DNA of 62,972 nucleotides, from positions 1 to 62,972 of the forward strand of contig SBBC01000020.1 of NCBI GenBank assembly GCA_005239865.1. Direction: 5' to 3'. Below the pieces are notes generated by a model, which saw nothing but the letters and a program-made list of their open reading frames with translations, did no database searches and was not told the DNA's origin. The position numbers were made by a program, and so were the translations under genes. Numbering within the stretch: position 1 is the stretch's first letter; each line of letters starts with the position of its first letter. This document shows, in pieces, positions 4,534 through 49,393 of the stretch. This DNA is from Candidatus Microgenomatus auricola (GTDB lineage Bacteria; Patescibacteriota; Patescibacteriia; SBBC01).

Positions 4534-7500
4534 GACGCTGGTGTCAGTTGGACCGCGCCGTTCCCGAGGAGCTGCTCCAGCGCGCGGAGGAGATCATCGT
4601 GCCAACGGACGAGGTAGTTCGTCGTTATCCGTCGTTCCGACGCGCCGTCCACGACCAGGACAACCTTGGCCGATCCGGGATTCCGCCGGAACAGGTCTTT
4701 CAGTTTCTGCCACAATTTCTCGTCGGCAGCGTTGGGGATGCGGACGATGATGTTGAGCGGCGTGCGTTCCTCGTGCCGGAGTTCGCGCGCGTCGTCGACG
4801 AGGATTTTCGGCGTGCCGTCCTTGTCGCTCATTTTGCCCTGGATGATGACGATCCGGTCTTCCTGCCAAGGCGCTGGGTTGGCCTTGAGAACACTCGGGA
4901 AGACGAGTACTTCGACGCTGCCGCTCGGATCCTCGAGGCGCGCGAAGAGCATGGTTTCGGCGGTCCGCGTCAGCTTCCGCTGGACCGTGGTGATGACGCC
5001 GGAGATTTTCACGCGTTGCCCCGCTTTTAGTTCGCCGAGTTTCGCGCAGGTGATGACGCCCCAGTCCGCCAGGAGTGGACTGAACGGATCGAGCGGGTGA
5101 CTCGAAACATAGAATCCGAGGAGGTCCTTCTCCCAGGTAAGCCGCTCGCGCTCGCTCGCCGGGCGGCTGGTTTTCAGGCGAATTGACGGCGGATGGGCGA
5201 CGGGGAGCATTCCAAAAATATTCATCTGTCGCTGGTGGTGTTCGCGTTCCGCGCCGCGGTTGATGTCGAGGAGTTCGCCAATGCTCTCGAGCATCTGCTT
5301 TCGCTCGCCGAAAGGGTCAAGCGCGCCGGTCTTGATGAGTGACTCGAGGGATTTACGGTTGAGGTCCTTTGATTGGACGCGTCGGAGGAAATCCTCGAGC
5401 GAGGCGTACGGCCCGTTCGCCTTCCGTTCCTCGATGATCTTTGAAACCAGCTGGTCGCCGACGTTCTTGACCGCGCCGAGACCGAAACGGATCCGCGAGG
5501 GTGCCGCGCGGTCCGAGGCGGGAACGACCGCGAACGACGAGAACGATTCATTGATATCCGGCGGGAGGACGGCCAGTCCCATTTTTTTGCACTCGTTGAC
5601 TTCGAGTGCGATCCGGTCGGTATTCGCCTGGTCGGCGGTCAGGAGAGCGGCCATGAACTCGGCGGGGTAGTTGGCTTTCGCGTAGGCGGTTTGGTACGCG
5701 ATCAGGGCGTAGCAGACGGCGTGGGCGCGATTGAATCCATAACGCGCGAAGGGCTCAATGAACTCGAAGATTTTCTCGGCCGTTTCCTTTTTCAAACCAT
5801 TATTCACCCCACCCTCGACAAATTTCTTCCTCTGTTCTTTCAGGAGTTTGGCAATTTTCTTGCCGACCGCTTTGCGAAGAACGTCAGCTTCCGCCATCGT
5901 GAAGCCGGCCAGGTCGCGGGCCATCTGCATGACTTGTTCTTGATAGACGGCCACGCCGTAGGTCTTCTCGAGGATCGGTTTCAGGCGCGGGTCGAGGTAC
6001 TTCGGCTTGTACTTCCCGTGCTTGCCGGCGATGTACTGGGGGATGAGCTCCATCGGGCCGGGGCGATACAGCGAGATCATCGCCACGATGTCCTCGAACG
6101 TCGTCGGCTTGAGTTCGCGGAGGTACCGACGCATGCCCGACGACTCAAGCTGGAAGACGCCGGTCGTCTCGCCGGCCTGGAGCATGGCGAAGGTCTTGGC
6201 GTCGTCGAGGGGCAGGCGGTCAAGGTCAAGCTTGACGCCGCGGGCGGCCTGGAGGATCTTGACCGTTCGTTCGAGAATCGTCAGGTTCGACAGGCCGAGG
6301 AAGTCGATTTTGAGAATGCCGAGATCTTCGATTGGATGGAGCGAGTATTGAGTGACGAGCATGTCGGATTCATTCGAAGCGCGTTGGACGGGGACGGTGT
6401 GCGCGAGCGGTTCCTTGGTGATGACGAATCCGCAGGCATGCTGCGAGGCGTGCCGCGCGACGCCCTCGAGTTTTTTCGCGGTGGCGAGGAGTTTCCGTCC
6501 GGCCGGATCGCGCTCGGCAATTTCCTTGAGTTCCGGTACCGTTCTCATCGCCTCGTCGAGCGAGGTAAACATCGGAATGAGTTTCGCCACCCGGTCACAG
6601 TAGTTGTACGGCAGACCGAGCACCCGCCCAACGTCGCGGATGGCGGCTCGCGCCGCCATGGTGCCGAAGGTAATGATACCAGCCACGTGGTCGTGCCCAT
6701 ATTTTTCCTGGACGTAGCGGATGACTTCGTCGCGCCGGCTGTCGGCGAAGTCGATGTCGATGTCGGGCATCGCCACTCGGTCCGGATTCAAAAACCGTTC
6801 GAACAGGAGTTCGTACGCGATCGGGTCAACGCTGGTGATATTCAGGAGGTAGGAGACGATCGAGCCGGCGGCCGAGCCGCGCCCCGGTCCGACGACGATA
6901 CCGTGCTCTTTCGCCCAGTTGACGAAATCGCTGACAATCAGGAAGTAGGGAGCAAAACCAGTTTTCGTGATGACCCGAAGCTCGTTCTCAAGTCGGGCTC
7001 TGACCTCGGCCGTCGGCTGGTCGCCGTAGCGGTGCGGCAGCGCCGCCTCGCAGAGTTTACGTAAATACTCGTTCGGCGTCTGGTTGTTCGGAACGGTAAA
7101 ATGAGGGAGGACCGTTTTTCCGAACTCAAATTCGAAGTCGACCATCTCGGCAATCTTCGCCGCCCGTTCAACCGCACCCGGAAACTCTTCGAATTTTTCT
7201 TTCATCACCTCACCCGGCAACAATGACAAGTCCTCGTTTCGCATAGTCATTCGATCGGTGTTCTGGAGCTGCTTTTTCAGGTGAATGCAGAGCAAGACGT
7301 CCTGCGCCTCGGCATCCTCCGGCTTGAGGTAGTGGCTGTCGTTCGTGGCGACGAGCGGGACATCGAGCGCCCGCCCGAACTCCGCGAGTTTTTGGTTGAC
7401 GCGGGCCAGCACCGGAAGAGACGGATGATGCTGGAGCTCGAAGGCGAAGTGCTCCCGACCGAACAACTGTCGGAATTCCCGCGCTATCCGTTCGGCTTCG

Positions 7501-11043: not shown

Positions 11044-11757
11044 ATGTCCGCGTTCACAATTCAAGCCCAGCCGCGCGGCGCGCTGGGGAAGAAGACGAAA
11101 GCCCTGCGAAAATCAGGGACGCTCCCGGCGGTCCTCTATGGACACGGGGTGGCTTCGCGTCCCCTGACCGTCCGCGGCAACGACTTTCTCCGAGTTTACC
11201 GGGCGGCCGGCGCGAGTACGCTTGTCAATTTGGTCGTGGACGGCGAGCCGCCGGTCAAGGTCATTATCCAGGACGTCCAGCGCCATCCGGTTTCCGGGCA
11301 GCCGCTCCATGTCGATTTACACCAGGTGCGGATGACTGAAAAGATTCATGCCGACATACCCTTGAAGTTCAGCGGTGAGGCACCAGCAGTCAAAGAGCTC
11401 GGCGGCGTATTCTTGAAAAACCTCGATCACCTCAAGGTAGAAGCGTTGCCAGGCGACCTTATCCACGAGATCGTTGTTGATGTGGCCAAACTCAAAACAT
11501 TTGCAGACATGATTCACGTGCGCGACGTCGTCATGCCGCCGGGGATCACGGCCCTCGACAAAGCCGAGGAAGTCGTCTGTCTCGTGACCGAACCGCGGAG
11601 CGAGCAGGAATTGGCCGAACTTGAGACGACGGTCGAGGAGAAGGTCGAAGAGGTGGAGGGCGTGAAGAAGGAGGAAGTGGCGGCCGAAGCAAAGGTTGAA
11701 GCGGTTGAGCCGGCACCAGCCCCAGCCAAGGAGCAGGGCGATGGTAAAAAAGAATAA
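11044..11757 (+). CDS. rplY: 50S ribosomal protein L25 (Ctc form)
   Basis: MSAFTIQAQPRG...LRKSGTLPAVLYGHG N-terminus and an acidic C-terminal extension. The longer ORF from 10954 overlaps the upstream gene. Confidence 0.9.
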   Translation: MSAFTIQAQPRGALGKKTKALRKSGTLPAVLYGHGVASRPLTVRGNDFLRVYRAAGASTLVNLVVDGEPPVKVIIQDVQRHPVSGQPLHVDLHQVRMTEKIHADIPLKFSGEAPAVKELGGVFLKNLDHLKVEALPGDLIHEIVVDVAKLKTFADMIHVRDVVMPPGITALDKAEEVVCLVTEPRSEQELAELETTVEEKVEEVEGVKKEEVAAEAKVEAVEPAPAPAKEQGDGKKE

Positions 11758-12982
11758 GCGCGACGACCGCGAGGAAATAGTCAAGGCTCTGTCTGAAGCC
11801 GAGCAGGGCGAGGATGAAGCGGATGTGGTTGAGGTCGCGCCGAAGAGTCAGGCCGCGCCGGTTGCTCAAACCGGCAAGAAGGGCGGTCGGACGACGCCGG
11901 CCGAAACGACACGGTCGGCCAAAGCCGTATCACCATCACGGAAGAAGATTGTGGTCATCTTGACGGTCAGCGGCGCAGTGTTGCTGGCCATCGCGGTGGC
12001 CGGGTATTATCTGTTGAACCCGGCAACTCCCGGCACAAACGACGGCCCCGTCAATGACGGCGGCAGTGCTGACCTGCGCGTCGCGCGTCGAATCGACGGC
12101 GTCCTCGACGATACCGACGATCAGAACAAGTACCCGATTGGTATCATGGTTGAAAATCATACGGCTTCCCGTCCGCAATCCGGCCTGGACAAAGCGAACG
12201 TTGTGTTTGAGGCTTTAGCCGAAGGCGGGATTACTCGGTTTCTGGCGATCTATACATTGACCGACCCGGTCGAGGAAATTGGTCCTGTGCGTTCGGCTCG
12301 ACCTTACTACGTGGATTGGGCGCGCGGCTATAACGCGATGTATACGCACATTGGCGGGAGTCCGAAAGCGCTCGAGCGCATCGCGACGACGAACACTCTC
12401 GACCTCAATCAGTTTTTCAACAGTCAATATTTCTATCGTGACAAATCGCGTGAGGTGGCCAGCGAACACACGCTCTACACCAACGGTCGGCTGATGACGT
12501 TGGCCCTCCTCGATAAGAAGATACCAGCTTCAGGATCATACGAGGGTTGGGTGTTTAAGGCCCCGTCGCCGCCGGCCGAACGTCCGTCGAGCCAGCACCT
12601 GACCATCAATTATTCAACGTTCAGCTACAAGGTTGATTACGAATACGACCCGGTGGAAAACGACTATGTCCGTTCGCAGGCGGAACAACCGCACGTCATG
12701 CGCGACGGTACGCCGATTCGGCCGAAGAACGTCGTCGTCTTGACGGTCAAGCGACGGCTGGAACAGCCAGCGGACGGCAAAGGGCGATTAGAAATGGACA
12801 CCACCGGTGAAGGATCAGCGCGGTATTTTCTTGACGGGCAGGAAACGAAGGGGACGTGGAAGAAGGCATCGCCGTCGGAACAGGTGCGATTTTTCCTGGC
12901 CGACGGCAGCCAGCTGAAGCTCAACGCCGGTCAAACCTGGATCGAGATCGTCCCGCCCGAGCAGGAGGTCAGCGTGCGCTGA
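11741..12982 (+). CDS. DUF3048 domain protein (membrane-anchored)
   Basis: TM helix, then NVVFEALAEGGITRFLAIY and GPVRSARPYYVDWA blocks typical of DUF3048. Start MVKKNK at 11741 overlaps the rplY end. Confidence 0.8.
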   Translation: MVKKNKRDDREEIVKALSEAEQGEDEADVVEVAPKSQAAPVAQTGKKGGRTTPAETTRSAKAVSPSRKKIVVILTVSGAVLLAIAVAGYYLLNPATPGTNDGPVNDGGSADLRVARRIDGVLDDTDDQNKYPIGIMVENHTASRPQSGLDKANVVFEALAEGGITRFLAIYTLTDPVEEIGPVRSARPYYVDWARGYNAMYTHIGGSPKALERIATTNTLDLNQFFNSQYFYRDKSREVASEHTLYTNGRLMTLALLDKKIPASGSYEGWVFKAPSPPAERPSSQHLTINYSTFSYKVDYEYDPVENDYVRSQAEQPHVMRDGTPIRPKNVVVLTVKRRLEQPADGKGRLEMDTTGEGSARYFLDGQETKGTWKKASPSEQVRFFLADGSQLKLNAGQTWIEIVPPEQEVSVR

Positions 12983-13010
12983 CGGCTGACCGCTCGTTCA
13001 TTCGCATCAC

Positions 13011-14117
13011 ATGAAAACAAACACCAATTTCATTTCTCACTCATCGTTTGCGCCAACCTTTCTCGGCCTCTCGGTCATGGTCGCCGGCGCATTGTTGGCG
13101 AGCGCGCTGTTTGTGCAAACAGTTGAGGGTTGGCAGACGTTCATGCAGCCGCCGACCTCGGTGCTCGGGGCTGGCCGCGCGACGCCGGAGAAACCGAGCG
13201 TGGCGCCGCTGACGTTCACTCGACGCCTCGACGGCGTGGTCGTTGATACGCTCGCCGAAGCGGACGCAGTGCCGGTGGCGGTAGTGATTGAGAACATGGC
13301 GAGTACGCGCCCGCAATCAGGTTTGGGGAAAGCGCGAGTGGTGTACGAGACCTTGGTCGAAGGCGGCATTACGCGTTTTTTGGCGTTGTTTTTGCCTGAT
13401 GCCGGCATCGAGAAGATCGGTCCGGTCCGGTCGGCTCGGCACTACTTCGTTGATTGGGCCGAGGAATACGGATCGCCGTTCGTCCATGCTGGCGGATCGC
13501 CGCAGGGTTTAAGTCAAATCGCGCATGATCAAGTCCCGGACGTCAATGGCATTGGCCATGCCTGGCAGTACTTCTGGCGTGATCGGGCGGTGGCGGCGCC
13601 GCACAACCTGTTCACGAACAGCGCGCAGCTACAGCGGGCCGCGCTGGAGATGCATGTACCGACGCAGGCCAACTTCAAGGCTTGGGCGTTTGTTGACGGC
13701 GCGCCGCCAAATCCTGGCGGACGGCTCACCGCGAGCGTCAAGATTGACCTGGCCGGTGCGGCCTACGACATCCGCTTTGACTACGATGCCGCCACCAACA
13801 CCTACGGCCGGTTCAACGGTGGGCAGCCCCATCGTGATCGAGGCACGGATGAGCAACTTCACGTTGAGAACGTCATCGTCCAATTCGTCAAGCCGCCGAC
13901 GTCGCTCGGAGCGAACGGGAGGATTGATCTGACCACCGAAGGCGATGGTCGGGTCGTGATTTTTCGAAACGGCAGCGTTCAGGAAGGTACCTGGAAGAAG
14001 TCCGGCCGGGCCGAACGGACGCAGTGGTTGAACCATGACGGGTCGGTCCTGGCCCTTAACCGCGGGGCGACGTGGATCGTCGTCGTTCCACACGATCGGT
14101 CCGTCACGTGGGAGTGA
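13011..14117 (+). CDS. DUF3048 domain protein (paralog)
   Basis: VVYETLVEGGITRFLALF and GPVRSARHYFVDWA. Same architecture as the upstream gene. Confidence 0.8.
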   Translation: MKTNTNFISHSSFAPTFLGLSVMVAGALLASALFVQTVEGWQTFMQPPTSVLGAGRATPEKPSVAPLTFTRRLDGVVVDTLAEADAVPVAVVIENMASTRPQSGLGKARVVYETLVEGGITRFLALFLPDAGIEKIGPVRSARHYFVDWAEEYGSPFVHAGGSPQGLSQIAHDQVPDVNGIGHAWQYFWRDRAVAAPHNLFTNSAQLQRAALEMHVPTQANFKAWAFVDGAPPNPGGRLTASVKIDLAGAAYDIRFDYDAATNTYGRFNGGQPHRDRGTDEQLHVENVIVQFVKPPTSLGANGRIDLTTEGDGRVVIFRNGSVQEGTWKKSGRAERTQWLNHDGSVLALNRGATWIVVVPHDRSVTWE

Positions 14118-19249: not shown

Positions 19250-19833
19250 GGCCATTTTCGATTCATGAGGTGCAGAAGCTTCGTGAACGTACCGGCGTTG
19301 GTATTTTGACGGCGAAGAAGGCGCTGGAGGAGTCGGGCGGCGATCTTGAGCAGGCCGTTGATCTGCTGCGGAAGTCCGGGGAGAAGGTCGCGGCTAGCAA
19401 ATCCTCGCGGGCGACGCGGGAGGGGTCGATCGGACATTACATCCATGCCAACGGCAAGGTAGCGGCGCTGGTGGTGGTGGTGTGCGAGACCGATTTCGTT
19501 GCCCGGAGTACGCCGTTCCAAGACCTCGTTCACGATCTGGCGCTCCAGGTAGCGGCGATGAATCCGATCTACGTCAAACCGGAAGACGTTCCGGCCGACG
19601 TCTTGAAGAAGGAACAAGCGATCTACGAGGAACAAATCGGCGCAAAGAAGCCGGCGAAGGTTAGACAGCAGATAGTCGAGGGGAAACTTGAGAAATTCTT
19701 CGAGGAAACATGTCTCCTTCGGCAGCGCTTCGTGAAAGATGATTCACGGACCATTCACGACCTCATCACCGGGACAGTTCAGAAACTTGGAGAAAACATT
19801 CAAGTTCGGGAATTTATTCGTTTTCAGATATAA
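19246..19833 (+). CDS. tsf: elongation factor Ts (short form)
   Basis: N-terminal UBA-like VQKLRERTGVGILTAKKALEESGGDLEQAVDLLRKSG. ATGA overlap with rpsB. Confidence 0.9.
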   Translation: MRPFSIHEVQKLRERTGVGILTAKKALEESGGDLEQAVDLLRKSGEKVAASKSSRATREGSIGHYIHANGKVAALVVVVCETDFVARSTPFQDLVHDLALQVAAMNPIYVKPEDVPADVLKKEQAIYEEQIGAKKPAKVRQQIVEGKLEKFFEETCLLRQRFVKDDSRTIHDLITGTVQKLGENIQVREFIRFQI

Positions 19834-19835
19834 CC

Positions 19836-20780
19836 ATGGTTGATCTCGCCGTCAGCCTGCTCGCGCTCGCCTCGTTCGTCGGCGTTGTCACCATCGTGGC
19901 CCGACGATTTCCAACGCTGGCCGCCATCGATACGACGAGCATCCCGGTCGAACGGCAGGGCAAGCTTAAAACCCGCTTAATCGAGCAGCGGCTGAAGCGA
20001 AAGGTCGAACTGGCGCTGCGGGCCCTCCTGGCGGCGTTGAGACCGATGAGTCACGCTTTCACGTCGTTTCTGCGACAGCGTTACGAACGGCTCCTGGCTC
20101 TCGAACGGCAATACCGAACGCGGGTGACGACGCCAACCGCGTTGAGCCCCGAAGAACGCGAGAAAAAGGACTTCGAGATCGATCGTCTCTTAACGGCGGC
20201 GCACAGCGCCCTCGACCGGGGAGCGATTGAGGAAGCGGAACGAGACGCGATCGACGTCATCGCCAAAGACCCGCGGAACGTCAGGGCTTACCGCGTGTTG
20301 GCCTCGGTCTATCTCGAGAACAAGGACTACGAACACGCCCGCGAGACGCTTGAGTTTATTATCCAGCGCCTTCACGTTGAGGATGACGAGGTCTACGCCG
20401 AACTCGGACAAGTTGACTCCGGTGAAGGAAAACTTGAGGAGGCGAAGCGCGATCTTGAGAAATCGATTGCCGTTAACAGTCAGGCAGCCGAACATTTTCT
20501 CGACCTCTGTCGCGTCAACCTGGCGCTCGGCGATACCGCGAGCGCCTTCGAATCCTGCAAGCGCGCCGTCGAAATCGAACCGAATAATCCGAAGTTCCTT
20601 GACGCGCTTGTGGAAACTAGTATTGTGTCGGGGAAGAGGGAATGGGCCAGCGAGACCCTGGAAAAACTGCGCGCCGTAAATCCGGAGAATCAAAAACTCG
20701 AGGAATTCCAGGCCCGCATTGCCAATCTCCCTAAAAAACAAAATGTCAGGCCGCGATCTCATAAGCTGGTAAGATCATAG
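19836..20780 (+). CDS. TPR-repeat protein with N-terminal membrane anchor
   Basis: 314 aa with a TM helix followed by several 34-residue TPR-like repeats (AYRVLASVYLENKDYEHA, etc.). Confidence 0.7.
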   Translation: MVDLAVSLLALASFVGVVTIVARRFPTLAAIDTTSIPVERQGKLKTRLIEQRLKRKVELALRALLAALRPMSHAFTSFLRQRYERLLALERQYRTRVTTPTALSPEEREKKDFEIDRLLTAAHSALDRGAIEEAERDAIDVIAKDPRNVRAYRVLASVYLENKDYEHARETLEFIIQRLHVEDDEVYAELGQVDSGEGKLEEAKRDLEKSIAVNSQAAEHFLDLCRVNLALGDTASAFESCKRAVEIEPNNPKFLDALVETSIVSGKREWASETLEKLRAVNPENQKLEEFQARIANLPKKQNVRPRSHKLVRS

Positions 20781-20827
20781 TCACGTCGAGACAGCTTGGC
20801 TGGTACCCCGCACCAACTTTCGCCCGA

Positions 20828-20903
20828 GCCCACGTAGCTCAGATGGTAGAGCAACTCCATGGTAAGGAGTAGGTCCGCGGTTCAAATCCGCGCGTGGGCT
20901 CCA
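20828..20903 (+). tRNA. tRNA-Thr(GGU), CCA encoded
   Basis: Hand-folded cloverleaf: GCCCACG/CGTGGGC acceptor, GCTC-AGATGGTA-GAGC D arm, ACTCC-ATGGTAA-GGAGT anticodon arm, CGCGG-TTCAAAT-CCGCG T arm, then T-CCA. Confidence 0.9.
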
Positions 20904-20926
20904 GCGAGGGCAGGCGGGGAAGAAGA

Positions 20927-20957
20927 AGGTCCGCGGTTCAAATCCACCCAGCGGCTC
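20927..20957 (+). other. echo of the tRNA-Thr(GGU) 3' part (non-foldable)
   Basis: The 19-nt string AGGTCCGCGGTTCAAATCC at 20927-20945 is identical to 20871-20889 inside the tRNA. The following bases (ACCCAGCGGCTC) cannot close a T stem. Confidence 0.6.
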
Positions 20958-21045
20958 TCGAGTAGATGCCAAAATGATCAAGCGAGCCTGATGGTAAACC
21001 CTCCGGCCGAAGCCGAACATTACATTGTCGAGAACTTTCAAGATC

Positions 21046-21132
21046 GGGTGGGTACCGAAGCGGTCAAACGGGCCTGACTGTAAATCAGGTGGCCTCCGGC
21101 CTTCGTAGGTTCGAATCCTACTCCACCCACCA
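21046..21132 (+). tRNA. tRNA-Tyr(GUA), class II, CCA encoded
   Basis: GGGTGGG acceptor, CCTGA-CTGTAAA-TCAGG anticodon arm, 15-nt variable arm, GTAGG-TTCGAAT-CCTAC T arm, TCCACCC-A-CCA. Confidence 0.9.
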
Positions 21133-21191
21133 CGCGTCAGATTCGGAAAAAGGAATGTGGTGCGGGATGGCCACCGGTCCCCGATCCAGTC

Positions 21192-21219
21192 GGGGATTCG
21201 AATCCTATCCCACCCACCA
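21192..21219 (+). other. echo of the tRNA-Tyr 3' end (degenerate T arm plus CCCACCC-A-CCA)
   Basis: GGGGATTCGAATCCTATCCCACCCACCA repeats TTCGAATCCTA and CCACCCACCA of the tRNA 87 nt downstream. The T stem does not pair. Confidence 0.55.
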
Positions 21220-21286
21220 GTTGCAAAAAAGTAAAAAAAGTAGTACTCTACATCAGCTATTGCTGATTCCCGTTCGAGCTAATATC

Positions 21287-21524
21287 GCCGGAGTAGCTCA
21301 ATGGTAGAGCATCGCTTTTGTCCCGCTCAATAACGTGGTTATCTGGTAATCGCGGGATCCTCGAAGTTCTTACAAAATCTTGCCGGGATAGCTCAGTGGT
21401 AGAGCAGCTGTTTTGTAAACAGCAGGTCGCAGGTTCAAATCCTGTTCCCGGCTCCACCCGACAAGATTTTGAGAACTTCGGGATAAAGCGGTGGTTGGGG
21501 GTTCGAATCCTCTCTCCGGCTCCA
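21287..21524 (+). tRNA. interrupted tRNA gene (Thr-UGU-like if joined 21321/21485) with a 163-nt insert in the anticodon loop
   Basis: 5' part 21287-21321 and 3' part 21485-21524 join into a 75-nt cloverleaf. It has 7/7 acceptor pairs (GCCGGAG/CTCCGGC), 5/5 anticodon-stem pairs, a GGGGG-TTCGAAT-CCTCT T arm and T-CCA. See findings. Confidence 0.6.
21382..21456 (+). tRNA. tRNA-Thr(UGU), CCA encoded (nested inside the interrupted tRNA)
   Basis: GCCGGGA/TCCCGGC acceptor, GCTGT-TTTGTAA-ACAGC anticodon arm, GCAGG-TTCAAAT-CCTGT T arm, then T-CCA. Confidence 0.9.
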
Positions 21525-21553
21525 GGCATACTCGTCAGTAAACAACCTCTTCA

Positions 21554-21715
21554 ATGTCGCAAGAAAATTTAGTCGGTCTGGCATGCGCCGAGTGCAAGCG
21601 GGTCAATTACTTCACCACGCGGAATAAGAAAAAAATCAAGGCCAAGTTGTCACTCAAGAAGTATTGTCCATGGGACAAGAAGCATACCGTTCATACCGAG
21701 GCGAAGCTCAAATGA
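21554..21715 (+). CDS. rpmG: 50S ribosomal protein L33
   Basis: 53-aa ORF absent from the ORF track because it is under 60 aa: MSQENLVGLACAECKRVNYFTTRNKKKIKAKLSLKKYCPWDKKHTVHTEAKLK. This is the typical L33 pattern (CxxC...YxTxxNKK...KLxLKKYCP...H). Confidence 0.85.
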   Translation: MSQENLVGLACAECKRVNYFTTRNKKKIKAKLSLKKYCPWDKKHTVHTEAKLK

Positions 21716-21726
21716 CGCATCAGTTT

Positions 21727-21779
21727 GGGGGTGTAGTGTCAGTGGTTAGCACGGCGGTCTCCAATCCCGCCCCAATGCT
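21727..21779 (+). other. tRNA-Trp-like 5' half (acceptor strand, D arm, CCA anticodon arm)
   Basis: GGGGGTG-TA-GTGT-CAGTGGTTA-GCAC-G-GCGGT-CTCCAAT-CCCGC. There is no T arm of its own. Its acceptor strand pairs with CACCCCT at 21875-21881. Confidence 0.55.
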
Positions 21780-21853
21780 GGGGGCGTCGTTCAACGGCAG
21801 GACCCAGGTCTCCAAAACCTGTAATGGGGGTTCGATTCCCTCCGCCCCTGCCA
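21780..21853 (+). tRNA. tRNA-Trp(CCA), CCA encoded
   Basis: GGGGGCG/CGCCCCT acceptor, CAGGT-CTCCAAA-ACCTG anticodon arm, GGGGG-TTCGATT-CCCTC T arm, then G-CCA. Close to the E. coli tRNA-Trp layout. Confidence 0.9.
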
Positions 21854-21885
21854 TTGGGGCGGGACAAGTCCTAGCACCCCTGCCA
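21854..21885 (+). other. 3' shell of the tRNA-Trp-like outer element (helix arm plus acceptor 3' strand plus CCA)
   Basis: TTGGGGCGGG (21854-21863) is the perfect complement of CCCGCCCCAA (21766-21775). CACCCCT-G-CCA at 21875-21885 complements the outer 5' strand GGGGGTG. Confidence 0.55.
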
Positions 21886-21913
21886 GGAGTCTATCTGTAG
21901 TCTCCGTTTACTT

Positions 21914-21938
21914 CGGGGCATAGCGCAGTTGGTAGCTC
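21914..21938 (+). other. tRNA 5' fragment (acceptor strand plus D arm)
   Basis: CGGGGCA-TA-GCGC-AGTTGGTA-GCTC resembles the 5' end of the downstream tRNA-Pro (CGGGGAT-TG-GCGC-AGTTGGTA-GCGC). No proper anticodon arm follows. Confidence 0.45.
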
Positions 21939-21986
21939 CGCACCACATGAGTGGTTGTCCGACGATAATTATCATCAAACAATTGG

Positions 21987-22018
21987 GTGCGGGGCAAGCG
22001 CGCGCGGCTGCCCCGCAC
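21987..22018 (+). other. GC-rich hairpin with a 10-bp perfect stem
   Basis: GTGCGGGGCA (21987-21996) pairs with TGCCCCGCAC (22009-22018), loop AGCGCGCGCGGC. Its 3' arm overlaps the 5' arm of the helix flanking tRNA-Pro. Confidence 0.6.
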
Positions 22019-22029
22019 GTCCGCTGTCC

Positions 22030-22102
22030 CGGGGATTGGCGCAGTTGGTAGCGCGCACGGTTCGGGACCGTGAGGTCGGGAGTTCGAGTCTCCCATCCCC
22101 GA
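22030..22102 (+). tRNA. tRNA-Pro(CGG), CCA not encoded
   Basis: CGGGGAT/ATCCCCG acceptor, CACGG-TTCGGGA-CCGTG anticodon arm, GGGAG-TTCGAGT-CTCCC T arm, discriminator A. Confidence 0.9.
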
Positions 22103-22112
22103 CAGAGCGGAC

Positions 22113-22165
22113 GTGCGGGGTTCGGGCGCACGAGGTCACCGGTTCGAGTCCGGTATCCCCAACCA
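22113..22165 (+). other. tRNA-Pro-like 3' part (9-nt anticodon-like loop, T arm, acceptor strand, CCA)
   Basis: GTGCG-GGGTTCGGG-CGCAC-G-AGGTC-ACCGG-TTCGAGT-CCGGT-ATCCCCA-A-CCA. The T arm is perfect and the loop keeps TTCGGG, but it is 9 nt long. No matching 5' acceptor strand was found. Confidence 0.5.
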
Positions 22166-22181
22166 AATCCATACGTCATTC

Positions 22182-22877
22182 ATGACATCACACCACAAAG
22201 CGCCCCGACACGTTGCGATCATCATGGACGGCAACCGCAGATGGGCGCGGAAGCACGGGAAACCGACATTGGAAGGCCATCGCGTCGGTTACCAAACGCT
22301 GAAGAAGATCGGCGACGCAGCGCTCGAACGGGGAGTAAAAATCCTGTCGGTCTGGGCATTTTCGACGGACAATTGGAAGCGGGCCAAACGGGAAGTGACG
22401 TTTCTCATGGGCCTGCTCGAATGGGTGCTGAAAGAGGAAATTGCCGAGTTTCACCGAAAGGACGTCAAGCTCCTCGTGACCGGCCGGATCCACGAACTTT
22501 CAGCCCGACTCCAGAATCTGATCGCCGACGCGATGAATCTCACGCGCGAAAACACCCACGGGATTTTGAATGTGCTCTTGAACTACGGAGGCCGCGAAGA
22601 AATTGTCGATGCGGTTCGGGCCATTGTCCGTGCCAAACCAGAGGCCGAAAGCGTTGATGAGAGGTTGATTGAGAAGCACCTCTACCGCTCCGAACTTCCG
22701 GATCCGGATCTCATCATTCGCACCAGCGGAGAACAGCGGTTGTCCGGCTTCATGCCTTGGCAGCTCGCCTATAGCGAGTTGGTGTTCGTCGATAAACTCT
22801 GGCCTGACTTCACTCCAAAGGATCTCGATGCCGCGCTCGAGGAATTTCGGCGGCGCGAGCGGCGCTTCGGGAAGTAG
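22182..22877 (+). CDS. uppS: undecaprenyl-diphosphate synthase (cis-prenyltransferase)
   Basis: HVAIIMDGNRRWA and RTSGEQRLSGFMPWQLAYSE motifs. Start MTSHHK at 22182, since the upstream part of the ORF covers tRNA sequence. Confidence 0.95.
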   Translation: MTSHHKAPRHVAIIMDGNRRWARKHGKPTLEGHRVGYQTLKKIGDAALERGVKILSVWAFSTDNWKRAKREVTFLMGLLEWVLKEEIAEFHRKDVKLLVTGRIHELSARLQNLIADAMNLTRENTHGILNVLLNYGGREEIVDAVRAIVRAKPEAESVDERLIEKHLYRSELPDPDLIIRTSGEQRLSGFMPWQLAYSELVFVDKLWPDFTPKDLDAALEEFRRRERRFGK

Positions 22878-23059
22878 ATCGTCGCTATCTCAACGCGACC
22901 ACGCACCCTGACGAACGCGTCAGGTAAGTTGTGTTGTCTGGAAAAAGAAAAAGAGCAGGTTTCATCTAAGTTGGACTTGACTGCGAAGTCTCAACCGGGA
23001 ATCCGCCCGCTCTTAAGGGAGGAAGTTCCAAGGCGAAGCAGAGCCCTTCGGTTCGTATC

Positions 23060-23150
23060 CTGATGATGGGCAAACCGTCGGGAAGCATAGGTGGGTCGTC
23101 ACGCAGCAGATGCCCGGGTGTGACAGACCGGTGGCGGGGACCGATTGAGC
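23060..23150 (+). ncRNA. candidate structured RNA, weak resemblance to a c-di-GMP-I (GEMM) aptamer core
   Basis: It lies in a 435-nt intergenic gap. The blocks GGGCAAACC, ACGCAGCAGATGCC and CCGGTGGCGGGGACCGAT are colinear with remembered GEMM-I blocks. A 7-bp long-range helix (23029-23035 with 23164-23170) encloses it. Not verified. Confidence 0.3.
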
Positions 23151-23312
23151 CAGGTGTCCCTATCGCCTTGAGCCGGGCTGAAATCCCCTCTGCCTCGCCA
23201 TTGATCACTTTGTTGAAGGAACAATTCAGTCTACACCTTGGTGGAGATTTGTCAAGCTTTGGTGGAAGCCATTGGCCTGTTCGGCAATGGTCATGTTTGC
23301 TACAATCAACCG

Positions 23313-23969
23313 ATGAACGAACCCCAGCGAGCGCGGGGATGGCTCTGGAGCATGTGGCAGTATATGAAACTTTTCGCCCTCCGTCAGTCAGAGAACGATT
23401 GGGAGGAGATGTATCGCGGCTTTCCAGCGGAGAAGCTGCCGTGGGAAAGCAATAAGCCCTCGCCGTGGTTGGTGAAATTTGTTCACGACGGGGTGATGCG
23501 TGGGAAAGTCCTTGATGTGGGCTGTGGCGCCGGCACGCACAGCGTCTGGATGGCGGAACAAGGGCTGAACGTTTCCGGCATCGACGTTTCCGCCACGGCC
23601 ATCATGCTTGCCCGAGGACTGGCGACCGGGCACGAGGTAAACATCAATTTTCAGATTGGTGATGCCGTGCATTCACCATATCCTAACTCAAGTTTTGATG
23701 CGATCTTTGACCGCGGGACGTATCACCATCAGGATCGTCGAAAAACCGAGTATGTTCGTGAAATGACACGGCTCCTGAAACCCGGCGGAAAATATCTGCT
23801 GCTGGCGTTTTCGCCGAAGATGCATTGGCCGAAGAGCGTGACGCTGGCGGAGGTCGAACGAATGTTCGGCCGCGCGCTGGTGATTGACTGGACTGGCGAG
23901 GAAGTGCACGTCCAGCCGGACGGTCGGGAAGTTCGACTTGGTGCGTATCTCCTGACCAAACGTCCATGA
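23313..23969 (+). CDS. class I SAM-dependent methyltransferase
   Basis: VLDVGCGAGTHS glycine-rich SAM motif and a DAIFDRGTYHH post-II region. Start MNEPQR at 23313. Confidence 0.8.
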   Translation: MNEPQRARGWLWSMWQYMKLFALRQSENDWEEMYRGFPAEKLPWESNKPSPWLVKFVHDGVMRGKVLDVGCGAGTHSVWMAEQGLNVSGIDVSATAIMLARGLATGHEVNINFQIGDAVHSPYPNSSFDAIFDRGTYHHQDRRKTEYVREMTRLLKPGGKYLLLAFSPKMHWPKSVTLAEVERMFGRALVIDWTGEEVHVQPDGREVRLGAYLLTKRP

Positions 23970-25294
23970 AGGATCTTTTTGATATCCAGCTTGAACGAGA
24001 CGTCGCGGAGAACGCGCCGCTGGCGGATCGGATGCGACCGCACCGGCTTGAGGAATTCGTCGGTCAGGAGGAGGTGGTTGGTCCGGGAACTATTTTGCGG
24101 AAGGCGGTCGAGAATGACGAATTGTTCTCCATCATCTTCTGGGGTCCGCCGGGGTCGGGCAAGACCACGCTGGCGGCGATTGTCGCGCACCTGACGAAGT
24201 CCGCGTTCATCCGACTCTCCGGCGTCGACAGCGGGAAGGACGATTTGCGACGCGTCATCAGGGAGGCGCGGGATAACCGGAAGCTTCACCGCCGGCGGAC
24301 CATCTTGTTTATTGACGAAATCCACCGCTGGAACAAAGCCCAGCAGGACGCGCTCCTGCCGTACGTCGAGCAGGGAATTGTGACGCTCATCGGCGCGACG
24401 ACTGAGAATCCAAGTTTTGAGGTGATTTCGCCGCTTTTATCGCGTTGCCGAGTCATCGTGCTGAAACGTCTCGAGCCAGAACACCTTGAAGTTATTGTCC
24501 AGCGCGCTCTCCGCGACAAGGGGCGCGGTTATGGAAACATGTCCGGCGTAGTCGGATCTGGCTCCGCCAACCGACGCGTGACCGTTGAACCGAAAGCGAT
24601 GCGCCTGCTTACCACCGTGGCGAACGGAGATGCTCGGACCGCACTCAATGCTCTCGAAATCAGCGTCAAAGCCACGCAGCCGGATGCCACAGGCGTTCGT
24701 GTCATCACATTGAAGACCGCAGCCGAGGCGCTCCAGCACCGGGCGTTGCTTTACGACAAAAAGGGCGAGGAGCATTACAACATCATCAGCGCGTTCATCA
24801 AATCATTGCGCGGCAGCAATCCCGATGCGGCCTTGTACTACCTCGGCCGCATGCTCGAGGCCGGCGAAGATCCCTTATTCGTCGCCCGGCGGATGGTGAT
24901 CCTCGCGTCCGAGGATATTGGCATGGCCGATCCCCACGCGCTCCCTTTGGCGGTGGCCGGCATGGAAGCGGTTGATCTTATCGGCATGCCCGAGTGCGCC
25001 ATAAATCTTTCGCACGTGGCCGTGTACTTAGCGACCGCACCCAAGTCGAACGCCACCTACGTCGCCTACGGGAAAGCGTTGGCTGACGTCAAGGAAACGT
25101 TGAACGAGCCGGTGCCGTTGAATCTCCGGAACGCGCCGACTGACTTAATGAAAGAATTGGGGTACGGGAAGGGGTACAAGTATTCTCATGATTATCAACG
25201 AGGATCGGCTGAAAGCGAGCAGCAGTACCTTCCGGACAAACTCGCCGACCGGACGTACTACGAGAATAAAGAGAAGAAGAGGAAGAAATCATGA
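23966..25294 (+). CDS. rarA: replication-associated recombination protein A (MgsA/RarA AAA+ ATPase)
   Basis: Walker [12 protein letters not shown], Walker B/sensor [21 protein letters not shown], and a C-terminal MgsA domain ([20 protein letters not shown]). Confidence 0.95.
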
Positions 25295-25575
25295 AACGCT
25301 ATCTCGTGACTGCCGGCGTCTTGTTCTTGCTGGCGTCAGCATACTCGACGTGGAGCGAGAATTGTCGTCAGGGATGCGGCTTCGAGGTGGTGACGCTCGG
25401 TTGGCCAGTCGTGTTGACGACACCGACATCGCCGGACAGCGGTCGGCCAGCAGAATTCTTTTTCGTGCCGTTGCTCTGGAATATCTTGTGGACGGCGTTC
25501 GGGGCCGTGAGTTTCTGGGCGGTGGTGGAGACGCTCGAACGATGGCAGGATCGGCGACGCCAACCGCCGTTCTGA
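25291..25575 (+). CDS. small membrane protein, unknown function
   Basis: 94 aa, 2-3 hydrophobic helices, ATGA overlap with rarA. Confidence 0.5.
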   Translation: MKRYLVTAGVLFLLASAYSTWSENCRQGCGFEVVTLGWPVVLTTPTSPDSGRPAEFFFVPLLWNILWTAFGAVSFWAVVETLERWQDRRRQPPF

Positions 25576-39983: not shown

Positions 39984-40667
39984 TTAGGTGGTAAGTGGCT
40001 CGGCGAAGAGGACTAAGCGTTGTTTCGTGGAGAAGATGGGTGTGCAGGTGAAGATCGTAAGTTGCGGTGCTTTGGTATTGTCGAGGATTTCGACCGCGTC
40101 CGGATTCACCACTTTTCGCTTAGTAACTCGGTAATCGTACTCTTTTCCTTGCCAGTAGACAATGATGATCTCGCCTGGCTGCATCCGGTCAAGGAGATAG
40201 AGGGTTTTTGGTCCGGATAGGTATTGGAAGCGGTGACCGGTGAGGACGGTATTGCCGCCCCGATCCGGCGTGGAGGTGTCGGGGAGGTGCCAAATTCCGC
40301 GGTAGAGCGCGCGTTCGTCTTTGCCTTCAACGATTGCCACGTCGACGCCGATCTTAGGAATGACTAGGCGGTTGCCCTTTGGCGGTTCCGGTTTCTTGAC
40401 ATCAGGGATGTCCGGCAGAACGCTCGTGCCGGCGAGCTTTGTCTGGTACGGGTAGACCGGTGCTGGTTTGAAGGTCTCGTAGATGATCCACGGCGAGAAG
40501 GGGATGGCAAGGATGACGAGACCGACGACAATCGCCGCGATTGAGGCAGGTTTCCGGAACCTTGACCACCCTGACCCGGCCCTCGTTCTTCGTGCACCAG
40601 GCCGCCGCTTCGAAGGCGAAGCGGCGGTCGTGCGCTTATTTGTGATTCGCTTCCGGCTCCGTCCCAT
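39984..40667 (-). CDS. sortase (class E-like, predicted LAxTG specificity)
   Basis: Basic N-terminus plus TM anchor, catalytic His in VLTGHRF, and Cys in QLTIFTCTP (TLxTC motif). All neighbouring substrates end in LA(A/T)TG. Confidence 0.85.
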   Translation of the reverse strand: MGRSRKRITNKRTTAASPSKRRPGARRTRAGSGWSRFRKPASIAAIVVGLVILAIPFSPWIIYETFKPAPVYPYQTKLAGTSVLPDIPDVKKPEPPKGNRLVIPKIGVDVAIVEGKDERALYRGIWHLPDTSTPDRGGNTVLTGHRFQYLSGPKTLYLLDRMQPGEIIIVYWQGKEYDYRVTKRKVVNPDAVEILDNTKAPQLTIFTCTPIFSTKQRLVLFAEPLTT

Positions 40668-40696
40668 CCGTTCTTCAGGATGTCCGAGAGCGGAGC

Positions 40697-41347: not shown

Positions 41348-41413
41348 AGCTTCCTCCCTAGATTATGAGCTTGTTTTGTGAGTAAGGTGGTCATGGGGAC
41401 GCTTGTCTCGATA

Positions 41414-49289: not shown

Positions 49290-49393
49290 GTGTGGTAGGA
49301 TGCAAGACGTGAATCCCGTTAGAACGTCCTTCGAAAGCTGGCATTACTACCGTAGAGGTCTTGAGATGTTGAAGATTCTAACTTTCTAACGGG

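Follow-up and report, generated by a model that had tools for sequence, protein, structure and literature searches.

How does a complete tRNA-Trp gene come to lie, enclosed by an inverted repeat, between pieces of what appears to be another tRNA-Trp gene? The locus in question belongs to a cluster of tRNA genes of an ultra-small CPR/Kerfeldbacteria bacterium; an Rfam scan at gathering thresholds of the whole window, that is, of the entire 63-kb stretch of DNA analysed here, yields five tRNAs only. Eight related Kerfeldbacteria loci (L001, L003, L006, L085, L086, L087, L091, and L224) were used for comparison, the sample overall being nine loci of a single tRNA cluster from one bacterial class. 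We consider it probable that the insert at the Trp locus (21765-21864) is a small non-autonomous element that carries a tRNA as cargo and replaces the cognate gene, although its movement was not directly observed.

Anatomy of the Trp locus

The Trp locus consists of the following parts, all on the forward strand:

21727-21764, +: 5' part of an outer, older tRNA-Trp (alignment to L003 tRNA-Trp and to the L085 shell)
21765-21779, +: left arm of the insert, TCCCGCCCCAA, with a TGCT leader (exact complement of 21854-21864)
21780-21853, +: cargo tRNA-Trp(CCA), intact (ARAGORN; Rfam tRNA, 56 bits against a gathering score of 29)
21854-21864, +: right arm of the insert, TTGGGGCGGGA (complementarity, folding)
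21865-21885, +: 3' remains of the outer tRNA-Trp (comparison with the L003 3' end and the L087 shell)

The intact gene that the earlier note had placed at 21780-21853 is recovered by ARAGORN as tRNA-Trp(cca) and by the Rfam tRNA model; it is 91% identical to the inner tRNA-Trp of L087 and is presumably the working gene. The perfect 10-bp repeat described as bracketing it is formed by the exact complements CCCGCCCCAA (21766-21775) and TTGGGGCGGG (21854-21863), and also takes in the pair T21765:A21864. Via the leader and the GCCA end, the pairing of the arms reaches the acceptor stem with one C:C mismatch and one G:U pair, the repeat finder reporting 22-nt arms that are 86% complementary. The predicted RNA fold of 21760-21870 (-57 kcal/mol, z = -4.8) has a 13-bp helix stacking on the acceptor stem; none of 200 shuffled sequences folds as well. 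The leader-trailer pairing score is 11 for Thr(UGU), 11 for Trp, and 17 for Pro of the window, against 5-7 for the five tRNAs of the uninvaded L003 locus by the same measure and 0-6 for 17 of 21 control tRNAs. Since L003 and most control tRNAs score below these three window genes, a chance origin of the Trp pairing is unlikely.

The outer 5' part comprises the acceptor strand GGGGGTG, the D arm, the 5' strand of the anticodon stem, and the loop CTCCAA up to A37. The segment 21727-21769 can be aligned with L003, whose plain orthologous tRNA-Trp it matches over positions 1-41 (81% identity, E = 3e-5), and 37 of 39 shell positions are identical in L085. The earlier note had extended this strand to 21765; the alignment to L003 supports the strand as such, but T21765, as the partner of A21864, is part of the insert. 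On the 3' side, CAAGT (end of the T loop), CCTAG (3' strand of the T stem), CACCCCT (3' acceptor strand), G73, and CCA are recognized in 21865-21885. The final portion, CACCCCTGCCA (21875-21885), recurs unchanged at the 3' end of L003 tRNA-Trp, in agreement with its proposed role as the outer acceptor end; TCCTAGC is also found in the L087 shell, and the remnant C/AAGT-CCTAG was compared with GATTCGAATCCTAGCC in L087 and TTCGAGCCCTGGCACCCCTGCCA in L001. The view that the shell has no recognisable T arm could not be maintained, the arm being partly present. Because the end of the T loop and the 3' strand of the T stem account for the 11 nt that separate helix and acceptor strand, the shell lacks only approximately nt 38-55; with this portion missing, the joined outer halves are not recognized as a tRNA. 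Inspection of the sequence bore out the reported difference at pair 6:67: the outer tRNA-Trp has T:A there, the inner one C:G. Identity between the two amounts to only 68% across the 5' 38 nt, and a recent duplication of the inner gene is therefore not the source of the shell.

The L085 locus repeats the 5' shell and the junctions. Its counterpart of the right arm, ACTGGTGCTGGA, carries compensating changes, and the bracketing helix remains paired there through three two-sided changes in 11 bp; the earlier note had named outer pieces that vary without preserving the helix as an outcome that would refute its reading, and the comparison with L085 favours that reading instead.

From this anatomy we propose that 21765-21864 is an element made of two complementary arms with the terminus TCCCG...CGGGA and a complete tRNA-Trp as its sole cargo. 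It would have entered the anticodon loop of the resident tRNA-Trp gene, destroyed it, and assumed its function, and the shell (21727-21764 and 21865-21885) would be what is left of the resident gene after nt ~38-55 were also lost.

Nested tRNA genes in the cluster and in related loci

The earlier note had inferred a general theme, a tRNA of a given identity flanked by inverted repeats inside the remains of another tRNA of that identity. This theme holds in the window for Trp, Thr(UGU), and Pro, and it recurs in a decayed form at Thr(GGU) and Tyr, so that all five cluster tRNAs of the window display the nested pattern. The remaining features of the cluster are:

20806-20919, +: Thr(GGU) cassette with arm CCCCGCACCAAC..., tRNA 20828-20903, and arm ...GGCAGGCGGGG (tRNA call, repeat finder)
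20920-20957, +: 3' remnant of an older Thr(GGU) gene (repeat family D1; 87-89% to the 3' parts of L001 Thr(GGU))
21046-21167, +: tRNA-Tyr (21046-21132) and right arm of its cassette, ...GTGGTGCGGGA (ARAGORN)
21168-21219, +: 3' remnant of an older tRNA-Tyr, variable arm to CCA (repeat family D2, alignment)
21287-21320, +: 5' part of the outer tRNA-Thr(UGU), to G35 (joined to 21484-21524, ARAGORN tRNA-Thr(tgt))
21321-21357, +: tRNA-less hairpin insert TCCCGC...GCGGGA (comparison with L001 and L087)
21358-21483, +: Thr(UGU) cassette with arm TCCTCGAAGTTCTTACAAAATCTT, tRNA 21382-21456, and arm CCCGACAAGATTTTGAGAACTTCGGGA (ARAGORN, repeats I5 and I10)
21484-21524, +: 3' part of the outer tRNA-Thr(UGU), T36 to CCA (alignment, joined ARAGORN call)
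21914-21937, +: 5' part of the outer tRNA-Pro, acceptor strand and D arm (positions 1-23 of L003 tRNA-Pro, 87%)
21938-21994, +: tRNA-less insert in the Pro shell, TCCGCACCAC...GGGTGCGGGG (repeats I16 and I11)
22011-22120, +: Pro cassette with arm CCCCGCACGTCCGCTGTCC, tRNA-Pro(CGG) 22030-22103, and arm CAGAGCGGACGTGCGGGG (ARAGORN, repeat I1)
22121-22165, +: 3' part of the outer tRNA-Pro, TTCGGG loop to CCA, decayed (positions 23-76 of L003 tRNA-Pro, 70%)

At the Tyr locus, the left arm and the 5' shell are gone, and the right arm and junction (A^TGGCC) match a complete cassette in L086; a 19-nt hairpin, TCCCCGATCCAGTCGGGGA (21178-21196), is inserted at G^TTCGAAT within the older tRNA-Tyr remnant. 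The joined outer halves of Thr(UGU) would read ...GCTTTTGTAAAGCGG..., with the junction GCTTTTG-TAAAGCGG. The hairpin lying between them (21321-21357) has conserved ends and an interior that cannot be aligned among the window, L001, and L087. The arms of the Pro cassette are 29 nt long and 86% complementary, and homologous cassettes are present in L085 and L087. A promoter and terminator scan found nothing on the forward strand within the cluster, which is consistent with co-transcription and is no proof of it.

One to three nested layers were observed in seven of the eight related loci; the eighth, L003, matches the window in its five tRNAs and their order but is free of arms and fragments. 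The earlier note had regarded relatives with a single plain tRNA-Trp and unrelated flanks as a possible refutation; only L003 is of this kind, and it represents the uninvaded state, not the rule. An empty-site allele is observed directly: the uninterrupted tRNA-Trp of L224 (3190-3263) matches at 74 of 74 positions the two outer Trp halves of L001 (5350-5383 and 5556-5595), which are split by a 172-nt insert at CTCC^AAAA with neither duplication nor loss. The joined outer Thr(UGU) of the window is identical at 74 of 75 positions to the live innermost Thr(UGU) of L224; in that genome it is the cargo, and its host is the tRNA type whose live copy the window carries. The invasion is therefore reciprocal, since the interrupted outer copy of one genome is the live innermost copy of another. 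Similarly, the live Thr(GGU) type of the window (GCCCACG/CGTGGGC) forms the outermost dead shell in L224, and the order of layers is not the same in L085 and L087. The simple scheme of a native outer and a foreign inner copy is ruled out by L224; any tRNA variant can be cargo or target.

Many shells in the window and in the relatives are truncated, chimeric, or riddled with hairpins, and in L091 one arm and the shell were deleted between direct repeats. An uninterrupted innermost copy is present at every locus with the sole exception of the L224 tRNA-Tyr, whose only flaw is a 30-nt D-loop hairpin and which is accompanied by no other intact tRNA-Tyr in that cluster; a rule that the innermost copy is never interrupted is contradicted by this gene, and some inserts at least may therefore be tolerated or removed from the RNA. 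The inner and outer copies of L001 Thr(GGU) and L006 Pro are nearly identical, which fits an in situ origin or gene conversion better than a foreign origin.

The search for further relatives added little. In a UppS search of genome contigs, the best match among those listed was 55% identical, and the search was of use only for L006. When metagenome contigs were searched with aligned sequences of the TPR protein encoded nearby, L091 was the one true relative among the matches listed, and an rpmG protein search at E <= 1e-10 returned three proteins only. The contigs obtained in three UppS look-ups, as well as those of L002 and L004, lack the tRNA cluster.

Termini, insertion sites, and probable spread of the proposed elements

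Beyond what the earlier note had claimed, comparison of the inserts indicates that they are a family of insertion elements with common termini. Termini of the form TCCCG[C/T]...[G/A]CGGGA, often CCCGCACCA/TGGTGCGGG, were observed in eight genomes and with five cargo types; the core TCCCG is also contained in the left arm of the Trp insert. Either CCCGCACCA.../...TGGTGCGGGA(T) or CCCGCC.../...GGCGGGA(T) flanks Tyr, Pro, Thr, and Trp cassettes as well as cargo-less hairpins, which are 16-60 nt long in the eight genomes. The same 9-15-nt termini surround cassettes of different cargo in different genomes; the inner portions of the arms vary among cassettes yet remain complementary.

Insertion is usually at G^T in tRNA loops, with junctions G^T...A^T at G^TAAA, G^TTCGGG, G^TTCGAAT, and G^TGGCC, and the site TTTTG^TAAA is occupied by three different arm types. 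Presence/absence polymorphism is evident for a 56-nt hairpin doublet found in L001 and missing in its close relative L091, exactly at GACTG^TAAATC, the flanks (a 251-nt block from TAAATCAGG on and 73 nt upstream) being aligned at 96-97%. No target-site duplication was found in the comparisons of L224 with L001 Trp (74/74) and of L091 with L001 Tyr, in which at most a 1-nt ambiguity (T) remains. The possibility that the arm guides insertion was considered for the Thr left arm, which holds TTACAAAA, complementary to the Thr anticodon loop; it was dropped because ACAAAAT is also present in the arms of the Pro cassette of L001.

Cassettes are more similar between distant genomes than housekeeping DNA is, with overall figures of 91-100% against 61-76% identity. 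For Thr(UGU), arm identity to L001 and L087 is 91-96% and whole-cassette identity 88-94%, against 68-81% for UppS and rpmG DNA of the genomes compared. The tRNAs of L224 are shared at 99-100% with genomes whose tsf and TPR genes match its own at only 61-65%. Perfect CCCG...CGGG hairpins of at least 8 bp occur at 1.53 per kb in tRNA clusters and at 0.020 per kb elsewhere in the same loci, a 75-fold difference; outside tRNA genes, the 63-kb window contains a single candidate copy (49313-49395), which is unusual for a transposon.

Among the approximately 50 ORFs of the window, Pfam detected housekeeping families only and no transposase, recombinase, reverse transcriptase, or nuclease genes; no integrase was found among these ORFs or adjoining the cluster in the gene tables of the relatives. 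There was no sign of a phage vector: CCCGCCCCGCACCAC gave 114 matches in viral contigs and the Thr right arm none, and among the 80 CCCGCCCCGCACCAC matches listed two have a nearby right end, likely by chance in GC-rich phage DNA.

Taken with the nesting, these observations suggest a guild of Trp, Thr(UGU), Thr(GGU), Tyr, and Pro cassettes that would move horizontally among Kerfeldbacteria. The cassettes would enter the loops of tRNA genes, mostly between G and T and without target duplication, invading native genes or one another's cargo and so building Russian-doll layers, and cargo-less hairpin versions would coexist with them and pile up in dead shells. We infer that an insertion survives only where the cargo replaces the broken gene; only cognate insertions would then be seen because each tRNA is single-copy and essential. 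Homology of cargo or shell to the target may also help. The elements may move as folded hairpins by means of an enzyme supplied in trans, for example a single-strand-specific recombinase or transposase, and the promoter of the old gene presumably transcribes the inner tRNA, which RNase P and 3' processing would cut out. It is plausible that the 21-bp helix of arm plus acceptor stem is an RNase III site.

Alternative explanations and known systems

The exactness of the inserts is also what one would expect if they were intervening sequences at the RNA level, either excised with joining of the outer halves or tolerated in a permissive loop, so that each locus would give two tRNAs; we regard this as unlikely. 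Removal of the insert restores a tRNA for Thr(UGU) of the window, Trp and Thr of L001, and Thr of L087, which ARAGORN then calls as tRNA-Thr(tgt) or tRNA-Trp(cca), and also for L224 Tyr, in whose cluster no other intact tRNA-Tyr lies. The same explanation would account for arms that keep pairing through two-sided changes, G:T included; the duplexes contain 16 G:T against 5 A:C, but both the folding program and repeated counting of homologous copies bias these figures. However, no tRNA can be restored at the Trp, Pro, and Tyr loci of the window (nt ~38-55 are absent from the Trp shell), the majority of shells are cut short, chimeric, or interrupted more than once, and every locus except L224 Tyr retains an uninterrupted innermost copy. 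ARAGORN in intron mode did not call the outer genes, the junctions show no bulge-helix-bulge, there is no Rfam group I or group II match, the inserts are too short for a group I core, and the window ORFs include no splicing endonuclease or RNA ligase. The specific form of this idea, in which the complete outer genes and L224 Tyr are expressed, the tRNA-precursor insert is excised by RNase P/Z or RNase III, and the halves are rejoined, seems to us quite improbable; if true, it would amount to a protein-dependent bacterial tRNA splicing whose 'intron' is another tRNA, and the element would be a mobile intron and not a gene-killer.

The layers might also have arisen without any mobile element, through errors of replication or repair in place at highly transcribed, palindrome-rich tRNA genes, template switching producing the inverted flanks and duplicated halves, with gene conversion and interspecies recombination spreading and homogenising the copies. 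Formally, nesting amounts to a tandem duplication of both halves, the chimeric shells and direct-repeat deletions attest to active recombination, and the matching inner and outer copies of L001 Thr(GGU) and L006 Pro agree with such an origin. Its likelihood appears low nonetheless: the inner and outer Trp of the window share only 68% over the 5' 38 nt and differ in compensated stem pairs, the 9-15-nt termini recur around different cargo in different genomes, cargo-less hairpins with these termini are polymorphic at different sites, and three arm types share the identical TTTTG^TAAA site. Integrative elements that target tRNA genes leave partial tRNA copies behind (PMC9897764), and finding such copies next to tRNA genes is the classical sign of integration (PMC9897764); the Tyr and Thr(GGU) loci of the window, taken alone, do resemble a complete gene followed by a 3' fragment. 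The fragments as attL/attR scars of prophage or island integration and imprecise loss are nevertheless very improbable, and already contradicted by the anatomy: 5' halves lie upstream as well as 3' parts downstream, fragment and gene are separated by 0-60 nt of inverted repeat and not by kilobases, the window has no integrase, the filled allele exceeds the empty one by exactly 172 nt, located in the anticodon loop, and the layers are nested, not serial. Finally, reads from tRNA alleles of co-occurring strains could have been collapsed or chimerised in assembly, and Logan contigs that begin inside the Thr(GGU) gene indicate that repeated tRNA pieces do break assemblies. We find such an artefact scarcely credible, as two independent assemblies from different runs match 20846-25318 at 100% and 99.93%, all three differences among the assemblies lying at 23340-23351, outside the cluster. 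Seven other genomes, which stem from several projects and have contigs of 495 kb and 823 kb among them, show comparable but different nesting, and exactly complementary arms are not expected of chimeras.

Non-autonomous elements with tRNA cargo thus remain our preferred reading, and they share features with several known systems while differing from each in others. Prophages, ICEs, and genomic islands at tRNA genes span kilobases, encode an integrase, replace the 3' part of the gene, and leave one fragment at the far end. Like them, the cassettes target tRNA genes, substitute for the disrupted sequence and so keep the cell alive, and leave partial copies; unlike them, they measure 100-250 nt, carry only a whole tRNA, enter loops, have both halves of the old gene adjoining, and stack in layers. 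The attL/attR pattern, with a complete and a partial (3') copy as direct repeats at the two ends of a kb-scale element, is not seen here; the 5' and 3' parts of the old gene flank a 100-nt insert. With MITEs, REP/BIME, Correia, RUP, and Rickettsia palindromic elements, the cassettes have in common their small size, non-autonomy, hairpin-folding ends, family termini, presence/absence polymorphism, and insertion into one another. They differ from these in the absence of target-site duplication, the functional gene cargo, the nearly exclusive residence in tRNA genes, and arm interiors that differ yet remain complementary.

Archaeal and eukaryal tRNA introns, as well as split and permuted tRNAs, likewise involve short structured inserts in the D, anticodon, and T loops, sometimes several, whose exact removal would restore the tRNA; here, in contrast, the host is bacterial, the interrupted copies decay, and an intact copy of the same tRNA lies within the insert. 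Inspection of the junctions found no bulge-helix-bulge (3-4-3): at the foot of the arm helix they lie opposite one another, without staggered 3-nt bulges 4 bp apart. Rfam at E <= 10 detected no intron, ribozyme, or other family besides tRNA in 19500-23500, and a group I intron, with its conserved P1-P9 ribozyme core of about 200 nt or more, a U preceding the 5' splice site, and a terminal G, is not matched by an insert of 100 nt, 74 of them tRNA, that ends in A. Homing introns, inteins, and twintrons are similarly selfish inhabitants of conserved essential genes, with exact insertion, no duplication, empty and filled alleles, horizontal spread, and nesting, but those elements splice out of RNA or protein, which restores the host gene, and encode or depend on a homing endonuclease, whereas the cassettes bring a new gene copy; Rfam scans and the window ORFs yielded no ribozyme core or endonuclease.

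The intervening sequences (IVS) of 23S and 16S rRNA are also hairpin inserts in loops of structural RNA, with a terminal helix of RNase III size and a patchy distribution among relatives, and the cassettes fulfil the structural criterion for this group in being hairpins that are closed by a long helix and inserted into loops of structural-RNA genes. The rRNA functions in pieces and needs no replacement, whereas the tRNA cassettes carry a replacement gene; a tRNA cut in the anticodon loop would not work. A further point in common is a gene for a PF05635 'IVS protein' in the L001 cluster. Folded substrates of the integron attC and CTX types are palindromes with conserved ends and a variable middle that insert at G^T without duplication. 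The cassettes resemble them in all these respects, including a middle that varies while keeping its structure, a likeness that we offer only as a lead from general knowledge; they lack the RYYYAAC/GTTRRRY core, an integron integrase, and attI, and their target is a tRNA loop. The termini TCCCG.../...CGGGA do not correspond to integron core sites, and no integrase is encoded among the window ORFs.

No description of nested same-identity tRNA genes was found in the searchable full-text literature, which does not cover subscription journals, and the evidence points to the nested tRNA cassettes as an undescribed kind of selfish DNA. If correct, this would be an economical selfish strategy, in which an essential single-copy gene is broken and a working copy carried; because the element brings a working copy of the gene that it broke, the host cannot afford to lose it. 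Rival cassettes would overwrite each other and leave a stratified record, and a new type of cargo-bearing mini-element would be added to bacterial mobile DNA. The loci offer a natural system for studying how an element locates the loop of a folded tRNA gene, and the L224 D-loop case leaves it possible that bacteria process interrupted tRNAs beyond group I introns. The cassettes would also account for a class of 'tRNA pseudogene' fragments that annotation pipelines can be expected to encounter in these phyla, and horizontal turnover of tRNA genes in reduced CPR genomes would far outpace that of the remaining genome (99-100% against 61-65% identity).

Structure of the tRNA-Trp unit and its cluster

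One tRNA-Trp(CCA) gene was identified at 21780-21853 by ARAGORN and Rfam, and the sequence agrees with the earlier note that it is bracketed by an exact inverted repeat, CCCGCCCCAA at 21766-21775 and its perfect complement at 21854-21863. T21765:A21864 adds one pair to this helix, and leader and tail (GCCA) carry the pairing on, with one mismatch, into the acceptor stem, so that the arms comprise 22 nt and are 86% complementary (leader and tail included). The predicted RNA fold (z = -4.8) stacks a helix of 13 bp onto the acceptor stem.

The segment 21727-21764 is the 5' part of another tRNA-Trp, distinct from the inner gene: 21727-21769 aligns at 81% identity with positions 1-41 of the uninterrupted tRNA-Trp of L003, a related Kerfeldbacteria locus, and 21875-21885 is identical to the final 11 nt of this orthologue. 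Both outer strands, and the pair 6:67 that is T:A in the outer and C:G in the inner tRNA, had been recognized correctly in the earlier note, except that its 5' piece extended to T21765, which is part of the insert. The spacing of 11 nt that it gave between helix and acceptor strand also holds, but these nucleotides are not anonymous; by comparison with the related loci L001 and L087, they are the outer T-loop end and the 3' strand of the T stem. The shell (the remains of the outer, older gene) thus lacks only approximately nt 38-55. Its insert departs from the usual junctions in running from A37 to mid T loop, an arrangement shared with the related locus L085 that points to two insertions and a subsequent loss of what lay between them. 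The tRNA cluster is identical in two further assemblies from other sequencing runs.

Homologues of UppS place the window in Candidatus Kerfeldbacteria (Patescibacteria/CPR group). The cluster, flanked by a TPR gene and uppS, has the order Thr(GGU), Tyr, Thr(UGU), rpmG, Trp, Pro(CGG), and next to each of the five tRNAs lie parts of another tRNA with the identity of its neighbour. The outer Thr(UGU) is complete and split at G35^T36, the outer Pro retains both 5' and 3' parts, and 3' remnants lie downstream of Tyr and Thr(GGU). The independent short-read assemblies L089 and L090 begin at window position 20846, within Thr(GGU), at repeated tRNA pieces that break assemblies; nested tRNA loci are therefore likely under-represented or fragmented in MAGs. 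The window also encodes two very large DUF11-repeat surface proteins beside a sortase, a LexA repressor and a DinB-type polymerase, and two neighbouring DUF3048 paralogues (further features, listed jointly: 39984-48113, 57196-57828, 61520-62839 and 11696-14117).

Empty, filled and reversed layers in related loci

The comparison covers nine loci (the window and eight relatives) for a single tRNA cluster in one bacterial class, and no whole genomes. L003 carries the same five tRNA genes without arms or fragments, and nested copies with up to three layers were found in L001, L085, L086, L087, L091, L224 and the more distant L006 (UppS 55% identical). The uninterrupted tRNA-Trp of L224 is identical at 74/74 positions to the two halves of the L001 outer Trp, which are parted by a 172-nt insert at CTCC^AAAA with nothing duplicated or lost and which, when joined, are called as tRNA-Trp by ARAGORN. 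The interrupted outer Thr(UGU) of the window matches the live innermost Thr(UGU) of L224 at 74 of 75 positions; the latter is the cargo (the complete tRNA within an insert) of a different insert at the same TTTTG^TAAA site, which interrupts the tRNA type that the window has in live form. Two Thr cassettes (inserts with complementary arms and a tRNA) occur in reversed order in L085 and L087, and the live Thr(GGU) type of the window is a dead outer shell in L224. Thus, the shells were working genes when hit, and any tRNA variant can serve as invader or victim.

The insertion reading does not explain the near identity of inner and outer copies in the L001 Thr(GGU) and L006 Pro units. The latter (L006 3500-3945) extends the nested architecture to tRNA-Pro in a distant Kerfeldbacteria genome and has, like L001, a D-loop mini-hairpin followed by ATAAAGTCC. 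In L001, the right arm of the Pro cassette and the 3' part of the outer tRNA-Pro are present twice (5846-5897 and 5926-5977), with starts ~80 nt apart and ~30 nt of unrelated sequence between.

Common ends, mobility and the state of the shells

Across genomes and cargo types, the inserts open with (T)CCCG[C/T], often CCCGCACCA or CCCGCC, and close with the complement of the left terminus, then A, usually T. The cargo-proximal arm parts vary among cassettes with complementarity kept. Homologous cassettes show two-sided arm changes: 3 of 11 pairs differ between the Trp arms of the window and L085 (one to G:T), Thr cassettes have CGAAG/CTTCG or CGATG/CATCG, and the Tyr cassettes of L001 and L086 behave likewise. 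Junctions are mostly G|T...A|T.

Insertion sites in tRNA genes
G^TAAA, anticodon loops of Thr(UGU) and Tyr
G^TTCGGG, Pro
G^TTCGAAT, T loop
G^TGGCC, Tyr variable arm

Shell loops also harbour hairpins without cargo, 16-60 nt long and bounded by the ends described above. The density of perfect hairpins of the insert type is 75x higher in the tRNA clusters than elsewhere in those loci.

Away from the tRNA cluster, the 63 kb contain a single candidate copy, ATCCCGTTAGAA...TTCTAACGGGAT (window 49313-49395). It is intergenic, with a PCMT methyltransferase gene on one side and a manC-like gene on the other, and has 10-bp perfect arms and the terminal core ATCCCG/CGGGAT of the tRNA inserts. In L002, a relative contig without the tRNA cluster, CCCGCCAGCCGGCGGGAC within CCCCGCATCCGT...TGGTGCGTGGG (5138-5180) lies between genes, at a position where relatives have an HhH-GPD glycosylase gene, and may be an element remnant remote from any tRNA gene. 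The doublet TCCGGCnnnGCCGGA + CCCGGCnnnnGCCGGGCA represents a second family of hairpins; L001 has it in the third, outermost Trp shell (5282-5313), and L087 in a Thr shell, within the T loop (839-870). The commonest left terminus, CCCGC-A-CCA (window 20806-20817 and 21938-21947; L085 405-414), resembles a tRNA 3' end when read as acceptor strand, A73 and CCA, with the right terminus GCGGGAT as the matching 5' strand; the element ends may have descended from an acceptor stem. In the left arm of the Thr(UGU) cassette (21358-21381), TTACAAAA at 21373-21380 is the exact complement of the anticodon loop TTTTGTAA. A guide role was set aside; the related ACAAAAT is also found in the L001 Pro cassette arms. 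L001 additionally has a PF05635 '23S rRNA intervening-sequence protein' gene (4693-5064) between the Thr(UGU) shell and rpmG, bounded by TTAATTAAG and CTTAATTAA and absent from the window, L003 and the remaining related loci read.

L001 and L091 are 87% identical in the TPR gene region and 96-97% in the cluster, where two indels separate them: a 56-nt hairpin doublet precisely at GACTG^TAAATC, and a 145-nt block whose loss is attributable to recombination between duplicated 3' parts. Genomes that agree at 68-81% in UppS and rpmG DNA have Thr cassette arms 91-96% identical, L224 has tRNAs 99-100% identical to those of genomes 61-65% identical in tsf and the TPR gene, and shell pieces of the window and L085 are 92-95% identical (rpmG, ~81%). 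This excess similarity marks horizontal circulation.

It also accounts for shells that appear 'too conserved' for pseudogenes, the invasions being recent relative to host divergence. Judged from DNA sequence, without RNA data, the shells are mostly not alive. The window Trp shell cannot yield a tRNA, many shells are truncated, chimeric between layers or hold several hairpins, and nearly all loci retain just one uninterrupted copy. The L224 tRNA-Tyr (2276-2392) departs from this: all its stems are intact, but a 30-nt hairpin, CCCGCCGACGCTAACGCTGTGGCGGGCAGG (2295-2324), is inserted behind GG-T in the D loop's variable pocket; its removal leaves a standard 87-nt tRNA-Tyr. The L224 cluster has no second intact Tyr. 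The hairpin may be tolerated or removed in RNA, a backup Tyr gene may exist elsewhere in the genome, or the hit may simply be fresh. We found no bulge-helix-bulge at the inserts, no group I or II signature (Rfam) and no splicing enzyme encoded in the window.

Mechanism and relation to known systems

The comparisons show that the inserts enter tRNA-gene loops exactly, bring a complete cognate tRNA, have common ends and paired arms, and stack; the inserts are also polymorphic and horizontally shared. We infer that nesting is cognate-only mainly because non-cognate insertions into single-copy tRNA genes kill the host; homology of cargo or shell to the target possibly contributes. Exact, duplication-free entry at a short G^T step and obligatory arm pairing suggest that folded single strands are the substrate of a recombinase or transposase; integron attC sites, CTX/Xer and IS200/IS605 offer analogies. 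This remains a proposal, and no such gene was found in the window. A scan detected no promoter or terminator consensus within the cluster, and therefore the inner tRNAs probably derive from a common transcript, from which RNase P and 3' processing would release them; the arm helix is a plausible RNase III site.

Integrative elements that target tRNA genes follow the same logic of striking the gene and supplying a replacement, but the window insert has neither an integrase nor a kb-scale island. Palindromic mini-elements share the body plan, archaeal tRNA introns have similar positions and rRNA intervening sequences a similar helix. The inserts lack target duplication, a BHB of the archaeal kind and a ribozyme core; rRNA intervening sequences apart, whose long terminal helix they share, at least one defining test is failed for each known family compared. 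The searchable full-text literature (subscription journals were outside its scope) yielded no report of same-identity tRNA genes nested within one another. If the enzyme or an RNA-level step proves new, these inserts would represent a new category.
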